DNA of 64,000 nucleotides, taken from the IMG/VR virus record IMGVR_UViG_3300042922_000265, positions 32,001-96,000 of that record. One strand, 5' to 3'. Shown one piece after another: positions 13,504 to 16,623 of this stretch. The notes beneath the pieces were generated by a model. The model did no database searches and was not told where the DNA came from. It saw only the letters and a program-made list of their open reading frames with translations. Positions within the stretch are counted from its first letter, which is position 1. Each line of letters opens with the position of its first letter. Source of the stretch: a virus. A program made the position numbers and the translations under genes.

Positions 13504-13611
13504 AACACACGGGCATGGGAACGAGGCCGGAGAGGAGGGCTCGAACCTCCATGATTCCTGGTGAGGGAATTTTTAACCAAGTTAACCGACTACTCAATCG
13601 GCCCGTGCGTT
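13504..13611 (-). ncRNA. scaffolded tRNA-like RNA 1 (Y-RNA-like)
   Basis: AACGCACGGGC/GCCCGTGTGTT stem, CGATT-GAGT-AGTCG, ATTCC-CTCACCA-GGAAT, GGAGG-TTCGAGC-CCTCC. Confidence 0.65.
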
Positions 13612-13613
13612 TG

Positions 13614-13687
13614 TATCCCGAGCAGGACTCGAACCTGCGGCTTCCACGTTCGTAGCGTGGCACTCTATCCATCTGAGCTACCGGGAC
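13614..13687 (-). tRNA. tRNA-Arg(ACG)
   Basis: CCACG-CTACGAA-CGTGG. Confidence 0.92.
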
Positions 13688-13693
13688 ATAGGA

Positions 13694-13828
13694 GAATGGG
13701 CATTTAGCCGTTACCGGCAAGGGACTGGACTCGAACCAGCGACCTCCACCTTAAAGGGTGGCGCTCTACCAACTGAGCTACCCCGCAGAAGGTTGGTTGC
13801 GGGAGAACCGATAACTATCGGCCCATTC
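13694..13828 (-). ncRNA. scaffolded tRNA-like RNA 2 (embedded tRNA body with 6-nt anticodon loop)
   Basis: GAATGGGC/GCCCATTC stem, CGAT-AGTT-ATCG, internal tRNA body 13717..13786 with CCACC-CTTTAA-GGTGG. Confidence 0.7.
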
Positions 13829-13832
13829 AACG

Positions 13833-13906
13833 TAGCCGTCCAGGGAGTCGAACCCCGTATCTCCGCCATATCAGGGCGGCGCGTTTACCACTTACGCCAC
13901 ACGGCC
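13833..13906 (-). tRNA. tRNA-Ile(GAT)
   Basis: CCGCC-CTGATAT-GGCGG. Confidence 0.9.
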
Positions 13907-14118
13907 ATAGATGCGTGATAGGGAGCTTCTCAGGGCTCCGAGCCATTGGACACCAGTGCGCCGACCGTCGAGTCATTGGACGCCTGGGCCTGACAGCGGG
14001 TTACGAGACTATCGGTTCCATCCACCAGCGCTGACTGGCTTCACCCCACATTGACGCCCGGTCGGGAACGCCACACTCTGTCACTATCACAGGAGGCTGT
14101 ACGGGCCTCCCGTTCGCG

Positions 14119-14191
14119 TACCCATGGATGGTCTCGAACCATCTGCCTCGCCGTTATGAGCAGCGCGCTCTGCCAGATGAGCTACACGGGC
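14119..14191 (-). tRNA. tRNA-Met/Ile2(CAT), elongator type
   Basis: CGCTG-CTCATAA-CGGCG. Confidence 0.88.
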
Positions 14192-14197
14192 TTGACC

Positions 14198-14317
14198 TGA
14201 GAATGCGAGCACCAGCCACACCACATCCTGCCCTACCGGCGTCCCGGTGGGGTGTCGCTGCAAGGTTTGCGACCCCTGCGTTGACGCGGAAGTCGGGAAT
14301 CGAACCCGAACCTCTCA
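14198..14317 (-). ncRNA. circularly permuted tRNA mimic (YrlA-like variant)
   Basis: TGAGAG/TTCTCA closing stem, TCGGG-TTCGATT-CCCGA, acceptor-like hairpin with TCAA loop, two further hairpins. Confidence 0.55.
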
Positions 14318-14320
14318 TTG

Positions 14321-14395
14321 CGACTCTGATGGGATTTGAACCCACGGCCTCCACCGTGACAGGGTGGCGATCACTCCAGACTGATCTACAGAGCC
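14321..14395 (-). tRNA. tRNA-Asp(GTC)
   Basis: CCACC-CTGTCAC-GGTGG, G73. Confidence 0.92.
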
Positions 14396-14435
14396 ATAGC
14401 TTGGAGGGACCAGGACACGTTCTCCTGGACCTTTG

Positions 14436-14508
14436 AGTGCATGACCGGTCTCGAACCGGCGACATCCACCTTGGCAAGGTGGTGCTCTACCAACTGAGCT
14501 ACACGCAC
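14436..14508 (-). tRNA. tRNA-Gly(GCC)
   Basis: CCACC-TTGCCAA-GGTGG, U73. Confidence 0.92.
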
Positions 14509-14581
14509 ATTGTCCTGTTTCGCTGGACCAGCGACAGGGTTGCCACATCCTGCTATATGCCGGGAGACCCGGACGGCGACG

Positions 14582-14653
14582 AGCTGAATCGGAGGATTGA
14601 ACTCCGGGCCTTTCCCATACCAAGGGAACGCTCTACCACTGAGCTAATCCAGC
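14582..14653 (-). tRNA. tRNA-Thr(GGT)
   Basis: TTCCC-TTGGTAT-GGGAA. Confidence 0.92.
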
Positions 14654-14712
14654 ATTAGTGCAGCAACCCCGAGGGGCTCCTGGTCCACCCAGGTTCACCG
14701 GGTGTAGCTGCG

Positions 14713-14784
14713 AGCCTCAGGCCAGGATCGAACTGGCGTCTTCGCTTTACAAGAGCGGTGTCCGTACCACTGGACCACAGAGGC
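14713..14784 (-). tRNA. tRNA-Thr(TGT)
   Basis: loop CTTGTAA, GCCAG-TTCGATC-CTGGC. Confidence 0.9.
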
Positions 14785-14819
14785 ATACACCCTTGCTGCC
14801 GTCAGGCCCTGGGGGATTG

Positions 14820-14892
14820 AGCTGGAGGCGAGAATCGAACTCGCTTCTGCGCGTTACGAGGGCGCTGCGTTGACCATTCACGCTTCACCAGC
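14820..14892 (-). tRNA. tRNA-Thr(CGT)
   Basis: loop CTCGTAA, GCGAG-TTCGATT-CTCGC. Confidence 0.88.
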
Positions 14893-14963
14893 AGGTGGGG
14901 AGCTTTCGCGGGGTCGTTACACCGCAGGCGCTTGTGTTGTCGTCTCCCCTATGGACCGCAACG

Positions 14964-15036
14964 TAGTTCGGACGGGAATCGAACCCGCGTGTCTCGCCTT
15001 GAAAGGGCAAGTGGCTAGCCAGCACACCACCGAACC
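14964..15036 (-). tRNA. tRNA-Glu(TTC)
   Basis: TTGCC-CTTTCAA-GGCGA. Confidence 0.88.
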
Positions 15037-15041
15037 ATTGA

Positions 15042-15173
15042 TGAAGGGCATAAAAGTGCAGCCGATGTTTTTAGGTGTTCTACCACTAAACTACGAGGTC
15101 CGGGGACCCCGGCGGGAATCGAACCCGCGCAACCCGCTTGACAGGCGATAACCGACATGCTGTCGGCCCTTCA
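15042..15173 (-). ncRNA. YrlA-like Y RNA (scaffolded tRNA-like RNA 3)
   Basis: TGAAGGGC/GCCCTTCA stem, CGACA-GCA-TGTCG, then T arm GCGGG-TTCGATT-CCCGC, closed acceptor CGGGGTC-CCCG-GACCTCG, D arm TA-GTTT-AGTGGTA-GAAC. Confidence 0.8.
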
Positions 15174-15176
15174 ACG

Positions 15177-15249
15177 TAGACCCGGCAGGGATCGAACCTG
15201 CGACATTCCGATTAAGAGTCGGAAGCTCTACCAACTGAGCTACGAGTCC
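15177..15249 (-). tRNA. tRNA-Lys(CTT)
   Basis: TCCGA-CTCTTAA-TCGGA. Confidence 0.93.
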
Positions 15250-15322
15250 ATACTGTGGGTTTTCCCGGTCCCACCCGGTCCATTTGTCACCGGTAACGGA
15301 CAAACCGGCACCAACGTGTACG

Positions 15323-15395
15323 TAGTCGATGCAGGGATCGAACCTGCGGCCTCCCCGGTGTGAACGGGGCACTCTTCCAACTGAGCTAATCGACC
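15323..15395 (-). tRNA. tRNA-Val(CAC)
   Basis: CCCCG-TTCACAC-CGGGG. Confidence 0.92.
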
Positions 15396-15589
15396 ATTGG
15401 AGTCTTGGGGAGCACGTCACCGCTCCTCTGCCAGGGTATGAGCCCGGAGTGCTTGCCCTCTTGATCCGACCTGGCAGGGCCAGATCGAAAAGACACAGGT
15501 GACTGAGTCACAGGCCGTTGCCGGGTCGGCTGCCACCGAACACCGAACTTTCCTGTGCGCCACCATGGACGACTTACACCACCGCAACG

Positions 15590-15661
15590 TGCCGACACCA
15601 GGGCTCGAACCTGGTTCTCTGAGGCTTCAACTCAGCGCTTCTCCACTCAAGCTGTGACGGC
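15590..15661 (-). tRNA. tRNA-Phe(GAA)
   Basis: CTGAG-TTGAAGC-CTCAG. Confidence 0.88.
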
Positions 15662-15745
15662 ATACTTCGGATTACGCGCCGTTTCCCGCGAGGATCTCTA
15701 ACCCGTCCTACGGGGGCACGCATAGGGTTGAACCCCCGTGCTACG

Positions 15746-15818
15746 TGGAACTGGTGGGGATCGAACCCACTGCCTCCGGTATGCCATACCGGCGCTCTAC
15801 CAACTGAGCTACAGCCCC
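15746..15818 (-). tRNA. tRNA-Ala(GGC)
   Basis: GGGGCTG/CAGTTCC with G3-U70, loop ATGGCAT. Confidence 0.93.
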
Positions 15819-15971
15819 ATTGAAGTTTGATGCCCTGTACCGGGTGGGGAGAGCATGTTCCCCGGATACCCATTGCACCACCCCAGGACATCCAGGCGGT
15901 CCGCGTACCGTTCGGTCAGTGTCGACCCCGACTCGGGTGGTAAACCCATGCGCCCCCATAGGGTCCTAACG

Positions 15972-16042
15972 AGCGCCTGACAGGAATCGAACCTGCGTAG
16001 CCAGCTTGGAAGGCTGGAGCACGACCACTATGCCACAAGCGC
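15972..16042 (-). tRNA. tRNA-Gly(TCC)
   Basis: CCAGC-CTTCCAA-GCTGG. Confidence 0.92.
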
Positions 16043-16131
16043 AATGTCCACGTTCGGTCGTCTTGGCGGTGGACGCGCCTCAATGAGGGGATCTAAACCC
16101 TGGACCTTCTACACAACTATACCACTTCAAG

Positions 16132-16207
16132 TGGGGAGACCGACCGGAATCGAACCGGCGAAGGCCAGGGTCACATCCTGACTGCACAACCAGCAGTGCA
16201 CGGCCTC
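16132..16207 (-). tRNA. tRNA-His(GTG)
   Basis: loop ATGTGAC, C73, encoded CCA; no genomic G-1. Confidence 0.85.
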
Positions 16208-16209
16208 AG

Positions 16210-16283
16210 TAGCTCGTACGGGACTCGAACCCGTCATCTCCGCCTTGAGAGGGCGGCGAGATTACCATCTACTCCAACGAGCC
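16210..16283 (-). tRNA. tRNA-Glu(CTC)
   Basis: CCGCC-CTCTCAA-GGCGG. Confidence 0.92.
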
Positions 16284-16342
16284 ATTGGGGAGCCTTCACA
16301 GGGCGCTCCCGAACCCTTTAGTCCGTTATCAGGACCATAACG

Positions 16343-16414
16343 AGCGCCTACCTGGAATCGAACCAGGGAATAGCGGGTTTGCAATCCGCCGCGTTGCCAT
16401 TTCGCCATAGACGC
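16343..16414 (-). tRNA. tRNA-Cys(GCA)
   Basis: loop TTGCAAA, U73. Confidence 0.9.
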
Positions 16415-16418
16415 AGAG

Positions 16419-16491
16419 TGGAGATAATGGGAATTGAACCCACCACACCGATCTTGCAAGGATCAGTCGCCCCCAAGGAACATGTACCCCC
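16419..16491 (-). tRNA. tRNA-Ala(TGC)
   Basis: GGGGGTA/TATCTCC with G3-U70, loop CTTGCAA. Confidence 0.85.
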
Positions 16492-16496
16492 ATTGT

Positions 16497-16623
16497 GATC
16501 TTGGATATTGCTTGAGGCCGGAACGCCCCGCCAGCACGGTTTCCCGTTGGGGCTGTCCAGACCATGGGTGGTCTGGACTGGAATCGAACCAGTGATAACC
16601 GACTACTCGGTCGACCCAAGATC
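16497..16623 (-). ncRNA. YrlA-like Y RNA (scaffolded tRNA-like RNA 4)
   Basis: GATCTTGGGT/ATCCAAGATC stem, CGAC-CGAGTA-GTCG, T arm ACTGG-TTCGATT-CCAGT, closed acceptor CCAGACC-ACCCAT-GGTCTGG. Confidence 0.78.

Follow-up and report, generated by a model that had tools for sequence, protein, structure and literature searches.

Probable Y RNA genes with one Ro60-type handle and different tRNA-like heads in the tRNA array of a Myrna-like mycobacteriophage

What are the four structured spacers that stand between tRNA genes in a mycobacteriophage tRNA array, and do they belong to a Ro60 system? The stretch of DNA analysed here (called the window) has 64,000 nucleotides and corresponds to bases 32001-96000 of the IMG/VR virus record IMGVR_UViG_3300042922_000265 (called the source phage), which is 167,373 bp long and has direct terminal repeats. 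Its closest deposited relatives are the Mycobacterium phages Myrna and Phabba (Ceeclamvirinae, Myrnavirus) with 77-80% identity over parts of the region. The tRNA array lies on the minus strand at window 11.5-17.1 kb and comprises 27 ARAGORN calls and a transfer-messenger RNA (tmRNA). An earlier note had proposed that four elements in this array form a Y-RNA-like modular family, in which one scaffold carries different tRNA-mimic cargo. All four are present on the minus strand at the positions given there, and we consider it probable that these elements, called E1 to E4, are four extra Y RNA genes related to YrlA and YrlB that are placed like tRNA genes in the array of a Myrna-like mycobacteriophage.

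13504-13611, minus strand: E1, putative Y-RNA paralogue; stem 1, 13601-13611 with 13504-13514; motif GGGCCGATTG at 13595-13604; stem 2, GTCGG (13586-13590) with CCGGC (13526-13530); cargo, anticodon-like arm 13554-13570 (loop CUCACCA) and T arm 13534-13550
13694-13828, minus strand: E2, putative Y-RNA paralogue with a whole tRNA-like body; stem 1, 13821-13828 with 13694-13701; motif GGGCCGATAG at 13815-13824; stem 2, 13807-13815 with 13710-13718; cargo, acceptor-type hairpin 13781-13805, D arm 13763-13778, anticodon arm 13746-13761 (6-nt loop CUUUAA) and T arm 13724-13740
15042-15173, minus strand: E3, putative YrlA-type paralogue; stem 1, 15166-15173 with 15042-15049; motif GGGCCGACAG at 15160-15169; stem 2, 15151-15156 with 15061-15066; cargo, small hairpin 15135-15147 (loop CUGUCAA), T arm 15112-15128, loop-closed acceptor-like hairpin 15094-15111 and D arm 15077-15091
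16497-16623, minus strand: E4, putative Y-RNA paralogue of a widespread subtype; stem 1, 16614-16623 with 16497-16506; motif GGGTCGACCG at 16608-16617; stem 2, 16599-16603 with 16517-16521; cargo, T arm 16578-16592 right after GUUAUC, long closed hairpin 16557-16576 and, at 16525-16553, a branched hairpin rich in GC and unlike a D arm

The common part of these elements is a handle laid out as a terminal helix (stem 1) ending in GGGY/RYCC, a large internal loop and a long-range helix (stem 2, N-UCGG with CCGG-N), followed by GUUAUC and then by the variable head. The 5' side of the internal loop carries the Ro60-type motif GNCGA-N-N-G (GCCGAUUG, GCCGAUAG, GCCGACAG and GUCGACCG in the four elements). 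In Chen et al. (2014, PMC4201824), GNCGAAN0-1G near the 5' end is the Ro60-associated motif and is linked to Rsr recognition; the motif of E1-E4 agrees with it apart from the second A, and the handles of related phages mostly read GCCGAAG. The strict 5' motif GGG[CT]CGA.{4,10}TCGGTT was found in five copies genome-wide, all on the minus strand, versus a mean of 0.1 in dinucleotide shuffles, and in four copies inside the tRNA array versus 0.007 expected. Four of the five copies are E1-E4, and the fifth is a YrlA-type RNA directly upstream of Ro60. The handle resembles human Y1 (GGUCCGAAGGUAGUGAGUUAUC), but a search with the Rfam Y_RNA model found nothing, and no claim is drawn from this likeness.

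To describe the helices, 51 handle-bearing elements were gathered from the source phage, Myrna, Phabba, the cluster C1 phage I3 and IMG/VR contigs found by pattern. The closing stems of E1-E4 differ in sequence yet form 8-11 uninterrupted pairs, as listed in the earlier note, and among those gathered, the two stem 1 strands of one element match at 3.8 of the 4 distal positions, compared with 2.0 when non-cognate strands are combined, a statistic biased by the collection rule of at least seven closing pairs. For E2 the 3' partner in the handle is GCCGGTAAC (13710-13718) rather than ACGGCT. The first variable pair of stem 2, beside UCGG/CCGG, is kept in 46 of the 51 elements (GC 15, UA 13, AU 9, GU 9), whereas the equivalent pair of a local hairpin CGAnn/nnTCG, which had been put forward as the conserved helix, is kept in just 25. 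In E1-E4 both foldings can form (5-6 versus 5-9 pairs), so that an alternative conformer may exist. For ten minimal Y RNAs, RNAalifold predicted two helices, the terminal stem and the long-range helix, flanking a large loop with CGA(A)N on its 5' side; 91% of the cells were paired versus 31-48% with slid partners, and the covariation score was 0.475 versus 0.11-0.15, a value reached in none of 500 shuffles. The terminal stem and internal loop are thus backed by covariation in the minimal Y RNAs and by compensatory changes in the orthologues of E1-E4. A scaffold covariance model (R1), built solely from minimal Y RNAs, aligned the whole scaffold of E1 with 36.3 bits (E = 2e-6).

The earlier note had stated that there is no Ro60 gene in the window. 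This holds for the window, but the genome outside it encodes an intact Ro60 of 549 aa (open reading frame at genome 6095-7744, minus strand; TROVE 167 bits, vWA_Ro60 140 bits). Two Y RNAs with the same handle as E1-E4 lie directly upstream of it:

genome 7794-7943, minus strand: YrlA-type RNA (the fifth motif copy), directly upstream of Ro60, with T arm, closed hairpin and D arm
genome 7963-8032, minus strand: minimal Y RNA of 70 nt with the same handle, upstream of the YrlA-type RNA

The first of these is the top Rfam YrlA match in the genome (36.8 bits). Because their handle is the same as that of the Y RNAs beside the phage Ro60, E1-E4 are most likely extra partner RNAs of Ro60. The handle co-occurs with Ro60 in every related record examined (TROVE was found in 5 of 5 records searched whole), and its helices covary.

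Myrna and Phabba carry orthologues of all four elements in synteny, and phage I3 carries the E4 type only, between tRNA-Met and tRNA-Cys; TROVE is present in all three phages. Closing stems have changed between the source phage and Myrna with pairing on both sides (TGAAGGGC/GCCCTTCA versus GGATGGGT/ATCCATCC), and a second example also keeps its pairing despite the change (TCTTGGGT/ATCCAAGA versus TCTCGGGT/ATCCGAGA). The heads were compared by RNAalifold as well. The anticodon-like arm and T arm of E1 are kept through compensatory changes, with the loop CUCAUAA in Myrna and Phabba versus CUCACCA in the source phage; the three E2 orthologues keep the D, anticodon and T arms and the acceptor-type hairpin, again with compensatory changes; E3 keeps its T arm, closed hairpin and D arm with five compensatory pairs; and E4, whose orthologues include that of I3, shows compensatory changes in both handle and cargo. 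In GenBank, Myrna (L011) genes 161, 163 and 166, given as 'tRNA Sup TTA' (tRNA-OTHER), tRNA-Met and tRNA-Asp, overlap the E2, E1 and E3 orthologues, and Phabba (L132) gt024, given as tRNA-Ser, overlaps the E2 orthologue; these entries are probably mis-annotated parts of Y RNAs.

The E4 type extends further. A clean 21-base pattern found homologues in nine viral contigs, and compensatory change was seen in 9 of the 14 pairs of the consensus fold; the underlying MAFFT alignment (A1) misaligned some 3' ends and served for consensus helices only. A first scan of viral contigs with 14 specified bases had returned mostly chance matches (the full scaffold at 17 of 120 loci; 4 hits in the reversed-sequence control). 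The I3 copy matches 202 deposited C1 phage records at an identity of at least 95%, and its 117-nt spacer carried no annotated feature in 25 of 25 records sampled from these. In other phages the E4 subtype sits within a Y array upstream of Ro60. Six IMG/VR contigs (L080, L119, L159, L162, L163 and L164) carry tandem sets of 2-7 same-handle RNAs directly upstream of Ro60 and on the same strand (6/6); the Ro60 homologues are 38-55% identical to that of the source phage, and the cargo is as varied as in E1-E4: minimal forms occur beside heads of the YrlA and E4 types and one whole tRNA-like body. With the published motif and the same handle upstream of Ro60 both in the source phage and in the six contigs, the proposed modular family of one Ro60-type handle and different tRNA-like cargo stands. 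The panel is not peculiar to this phage, since tandem sets of 2-7 with varied cargo are common at phage Ro60 loci, and the adaptor or decoy role suggested for it in the earlier note is conjectural. The largest set, in L119 (122,429 bp), comprises seven tandem Y RNAs at 469-1526 (minus strand), and its member at 777-907 has a whole tRNA-like body, again with a 6-nt anticodon loop.

With respect to the heads, the earlier note had distinguished an anticodon arm plus T arm (E1), a whole tRNA body with a 6-nt anticodon loop (E2) and two circularly permuted tRNAs. The first two types and the permuted form in E3 were borne out, while E4 shows no clear permuted tRNA. The order T arm, closed acceptor-like hairpin, D arm is found in E3, and E4 follows it without a D-like arm; outside this YrlA pattern stand E1, with the anticodon arm followed by the T arm, and E2, with D, anticodon and T arms. 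None of the four combines the 7-bp acceptor, free 3' end and 7-nt anticodon loop of a functional tRNA. E2 is the sole element with all tRNA arms, but it has a 6-nt loop and a weakly paired acceptor that is not kept among orthologues. Its tRNA body (71 nt, 13716-13786), which ARAGORN reports as 'tRNA-??? (tt)' and the Rfam tRNA model matches with 48.2 bits, is closest to the phage's own tRNA-Gly(GCC). The 5' acceptor strand has two possible partners: the normal 3' strand, with six pairs including two G-U and one more mismatch in Myrna, or the upstream linker CUCCCGCA, with seven pairs that are unchanged in all three phages. The consensus fold of the three orthologues picks the linker pairing, in which case E2 would be a tRNA permuted at the T-stem/acceptor junction; this assignment is ambiguous. 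Two other ideas were dropped. The loop CUUUAA was considered as a tRNA-Lys(UUU) loop less one U, but the body is nearest to tRNA-Gly(GCC) and the Phabba loop differs; and the small hairpin before the T arm was considered as a general mimic of an anticodon loop, but the loop sizes in minimum-free-energy (MFE) folds range from 3 to 13 nt, which does not support it as a rule. The 3' part of E3 (window 15057-15118, minus strand) gives a weak match to the Rfam Proteo-phage-1 RNA (RF03044; 16.4 bits, E = 0.61), the consensus 3' end of which, AAaAACaCCGGCAGCC, resembles the 3' strand of the handle, and this orphan motif could be part of a Y RNA.

All four elements are tightly enclosed by tRNA genes. 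The same tight spacing is found in Myrna and I3. In the source phage, 1-3 nt separate each element from the tRNA before it and 2-6 nt from the tRNA that follows:

13426-13501, minus strand: tRNA-Val(GAC), 2 nt downstream of E1 (ARAGORN and Rfam)
13613-13687, minus strand: tRNA-Arg(ACG), 1 nt upstream of E1 and 6 nt downstream of E2 (ARAGORN and Rfam)
13832-13906, minus strand: tRNA-Ile(GAU), 3 nt upstream of E2 (ARAGORN and Rfam)
14963-15036, minus strand: tRNA-Glu(UUC), 5 nt downstream of E3 (ARAGORN and Rfam)
15176-15249, minus strand: tRNA-Lys(CUU), 2 nt upstream of E3 (ARAGORN and Rfam)
16419-16492, minus strand: tRNA-Ala(UGC)-like gene, 4 nt downstream of E4 (missed by ARAGORN; MFE cloverleaf)
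16627-16701, minus strand: tRNA-Met(CAU), 3 nt upstream of E4 (ARAGORN and Rfam)

No sigma-70-like promoter was found at window 11-18 kb in a scan that did not cover mycobacterial or phage promoter types, and one weak terminator-like site is present on the array strand in the same range. Given this and the tight spacing, RNase P and 3' processing of the tRNAs would free RNAs with ends at the closing stems. The array would be transcribed as long precursors, from which each Y RNA would be released by RNase P at the next tRNA and by the 3'-end processing of the preceding one. The 3' end of tRNA-Arg(ACG) would thus set the 5' end of E1, and the 3' ends of E2 and E1 would be set by the RNase P sites of tRNA-Arg(ACG) and tRNA-Val(GAC), respectively. 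Such tRNA-punctuated release is known from mitochondrial transcripts and from MALAT1/mascRNA, where the ends of the neighbouring RNA are cut by RNase P and RNase Z at adjacent tRNA structures; for E1-E4 we infer it solely from the gaps of 1-6 nt. In M. smegmatis a single precursor yields both YrlA and YrlB, and YrlA is a substrate of RNase P and of the CCA-adding enzyme (Chen et al., 2014, PMC4201824). The source phage encodes a nucleotidyltransferase of the CCA-adding type.

Several observations weigh against the assignment of E1-E4 as Y RNAs. They lie at genome 45.5-48.6 kb, on the same strand as Ro60 (6.1-7.7 kb) but 38-41 kb away from it, and so fall outside the reporting criterion of Chen et al. 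(2014; same strand as Ro60 and no more than about 4 kb away), which the two other Y RNAs of the source phage satisfy. Position 6 of the motif is U or C in all four elements where the consensus has A. Rfam at its gathering thresholds reports tRNAs and the tmRNA only, and no Y RNA. The gathering score of the YrlA model (RF02553), 69 bits, is reached by none of the elements, and a permissive search gave sub-threshold YrlA matches to the tRNA-like core only: 33.5 bits for E3 (model positions 23-87, local E = 4e-6), a 23.2-bit match at 13658-13748 that straddles tRNA-Arg and the 3' end of E2, and no match for E1 and E4. The YrlA copies adjacent to Ro60 also score below threshold in the source phage and in I3 (36.1 bits); since even these fail, the Rfam model is insensitive to this clade. 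Model R1 did not align E2-E4 in full, an unfair test because their cargo exceeds the window of the model. To these points are added the bias in the stem 1 statistics, the restriction of the promoter scan to sigma-70-like types and the absence of RtcB from the genome, which leaves the link to RNA repair suggested in the earlier note unsupported.

Could the elements instead be unusual functional tRNA genes, for example suppressor or frameshift tRNAs, with conserved flanks that are mere leader and trailer? The E2 body is recognised by ARAGORN and by the Rfam tRNA model, annotators placed overlapping tRNAs in Myrna (Sup-TTA, Met, Asp) and Phabba (Ser), and the Phabba E2 orthologue has a 7-nt loop with the anticodon UGA. 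However, the loop has 6 nt in the source phage and in Myrna, the normal acceptor pairing of E2 is weak (two G-U, a mismatch in Myrna) while the alternative hairpin is fully kept, the Phabba 'tRNA-Ser' lacks a long variable arm, and in E1, E3 and E4 no cloverleaf that leaves the acceptor end free is possible. The flanks, moreover, are the conserved part and are common to the Ro60-adjacent RNAs, and we regard this explanation as very unlikely indeed. Another alternative is decayed tRNA genes, or structured spacers that would aid processing or stability of the array transcript, with a convergent or relic likeness to Y RNAs and no link to Ro60. That the elements occupy tRNA slots, contain pieces of tRNA and include one, E2, derived from a tRNA-Gly-like gene would be expected in this case. 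Yet it is the non-tRNA handle that is most conserved and that covaries, the handle bears the published Ro60 motif, its design is identical to that of RNAs always found upstream of Ro60, and the E4 type is maintained at an identity of at least 95% in 202 phage records, all of which makes such decay or spacer function quite improbable.

A further possibility accepts the RNAs as functional but assigns them a role largely independent of Ro60, in which they would be stable and would decoy or inhibit host nucleases that target tRNAs or other tRNA-binding defence proteins, with the handle as a clamp protecting the ends. The YrlA tRNA-like domain has been proposed as a competitive inhibitor of an anticodon nuclease (Hughes et al., 2020, PMC7790460), PMC12803027 treats phage tRNA arrays as a means of antidefence, and the heads display anticodon-type loops and tRNA elbows. 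Retention of a Ro60 recognition motif and an internal loop goes beyond what a clamp needs, though, and the handle co-occurs with Ro60 in every record checked. The loops also vary among orthologues: E1 has CAC in the source phage and CAU in Myrna, and E2 has CUUUAA compared with CUUGAUC in Phabba. A role mainly apart from Ro60 is therefore unlikely in our view, and extra Ro60 partner RNAs remain the preferred explanation of E1-E4.

As partners of Ro60, the four RNAs would load the phage Ro60, possibly also host Rsr, through the handle, and their heads would show different tRNA surfaces to tRNA-binding proteins. This division of labour, with the handle on Ro60 and the head engaging other proteins, is inferred from the analogous systems of D. 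radiodurans, S. Typhimurium and phage phiLo. The heads could link Ro60 with proteins such as PNPase, on the pattern of the Ro60/Y RNA/PNPase complex, or, during infection, could be rivals of tRNAs for nucleases or modification enzymes; PNPase tethering and competition with anticodon nucleases are the published proposals. The heads may have been drawn from neighbouring tRNA genes, in line with the resemblance of the E2 body to tRNA-Gly(GCC). A bolder and rather doubtful extension is that the tRNA array of the Ceeclamvirinae doubles as a production line of Ro60-loaded tRNA look-alikes, with heads recruited from neighbouring tRNA genes and cut out in step with the phage tRNAs, each head directing Ro60, together with enzymes such as host PNPase, to a different tRNA-binding protein or shielding tRNAs from that protein. 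If this were true, anticodon nucleases that the host deploys in toxin-antitoxin or defence systems could be among the targets, and the array would amount to a programmable RNA-guided system of counter-defence or tRNA quality control.

Other features of the array region were recorded on the way. The tRNA-Ala(UGC)-like gene next to E4 has a weak Rfam tRNA-clan match, and a tRNA-Ala is annotated at the syntenic place in Myrna and Phabba. A tRNA-Arg(CCG)-like gene at window 13294-13367 (minus strand) is likewise a likely tRNA missed by ARAGORN, with a cloverleaf fold and a syntenic annotated tRNA in Myrna and Phabba. Between this gene and tRNA-Val(GAC), window 13366-13422 (minus strand), lies a candidate 57-nt hairpin RNA with the closing stem GGGCUGA/UCAGCCC, AGGCCGA in a bulge and the inner helix GUCGG/CCGAC; its Myrna counterpart has the compensatory closing stem GGGAUGG/CCAUCCC, and it may be a seventh, stripped-down handle of the Ro60 type. 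A 71-nt module at window 13223-13293 (minus strand), with a T arm (GGCCAG-UUCGAGU-CUGGUC), a closed hairpin, a third hairpin and a 4-bp GCAG/CUGC stem, looks like a YrlA-like head minus the Ro60 handle. About 3.4 kb before the window start, genome 28484-28554 (minus strand) contains 71 nt that include GGCCGAGTGATCGGTTAC and are closed by a stem of seven pairs, but the AU in front of the 3' strand is lacking; the stretch is possibly inside a coding region and may be a chance match or a further handle. The array region also includes an HNH endonuclease open reading frame (HNH_3, 28.6 bits; window 11642-12148, minus strand) and the tmRNA gene (Rfam 58.4 bits; window 12185-12617, minus strand), both likewise present in Myrna and Phabba.

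Phages that infect M. smegmatis mc2 155 (Myrna, Phabba and more than 200 Bxz1-type phages) offer a cultivable natural series in which one Ro60 is accompanied by three to six Y RNAs with a common handle and different heads. The series bears on the role of the tRNA-like domain in bacterial Y RNAs and makes head-swap, deletion and pull-down experiments simple. The assignment of these RNAs also corrects annotation: the Myrna and Phabba 'tRNAs' (Sup-TTA, Met, Asp, Ser) probably belong to Y RNAs, and the conserved 117-nt C1 spacer (25 sampled of 202 records) is an unannotated RNA gene. Phage tRNA arrays seem to carry more than decoding tRNAs, which bears on readings of such arrays in terms of codon usage or anti-defence.

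Much of this system has precedents. Mycobacteriophages with Ro60 and YrlA, loci with more than one Y RNA, mimicry of tRNAs and the arm order of Yrn1 are already known, and the novelty is smaller than the earlier note had claimed because multi-Y loci and the Yrn1-type arm order are published. A literature search that did not include the phage list in Table S2 of Chen et al. (2014) and two Wolin-lab reviews found no report of Y RNAs in a tRNA array far from Ro60, of the head designs of E1, E2 and E4 or of the breadth of tandem multi-head arrays in uncultivated phages. A structured non-coding RNA among the tRNAs of mycobacterial and phage arrays has been described as GOLLD (Morgado et al., 2020, cited in PMC9569102); this large RNA of unknown function shares its location with E1-E4 but resembles them neither in sequence nor in structure and has no link to Ro60.

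The unpermuted cargo of E2, which had been thought undescribed, has a published counterpart in D. radiodurans Yrn1. According to Chen et al. (2014), a D-like arm is followed in Yrn1 by an anticodon-like arm (5-bp stem, 6-nt loop) and then by a T arm, and E2 has the same unpermuted order and loop size. Yrn1 differs in having partial D features and no variable arm, whereas E2 has a textbook D arm and an acceptor-type hairpin, and the two have no detectable sequence relation. YrlA and YrlB of M. smegmatis and of Ro60-encoding mycobacteriophages (RF02553; Chen et al., 2014) share with E1-E4 a stem formed by the 5' and 3' ends, GNCGA near the 5' end, several RNAs per genome, a Ro60 gene in that genome and a link to RNase P and CCA addition; the YrlA head, with T arm, closed acceptor hairpin and D arm, recurs in E3 and in the Ro60-adjacent copy, and YrlB-like minimal forms also occur in the source phage. 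E1-E4 differ from them in lying 38-41 kb from Ro60 in a tRNA array, each boxed in by tRNAs, in the other heads of E1, E2 and E4, in scores that are all below the Rfam threshold and in U or C at motif position 6. The Thermus phage phiLo (PMC12135203), like the source phage, encodes a Ro60 with more than one Y-like RNA (Yrl1 and Yrl2). These adjoin Ro60 and have no tRNA-like heads described, in contrast to E1-E4, which are dispersed in a tRNA array and bear such heads; their layout of stem, CGAA-bearing bulge and stem is that of the handle, and their binding to Ro60 and to host PNPase has been shown (PMC12135203).

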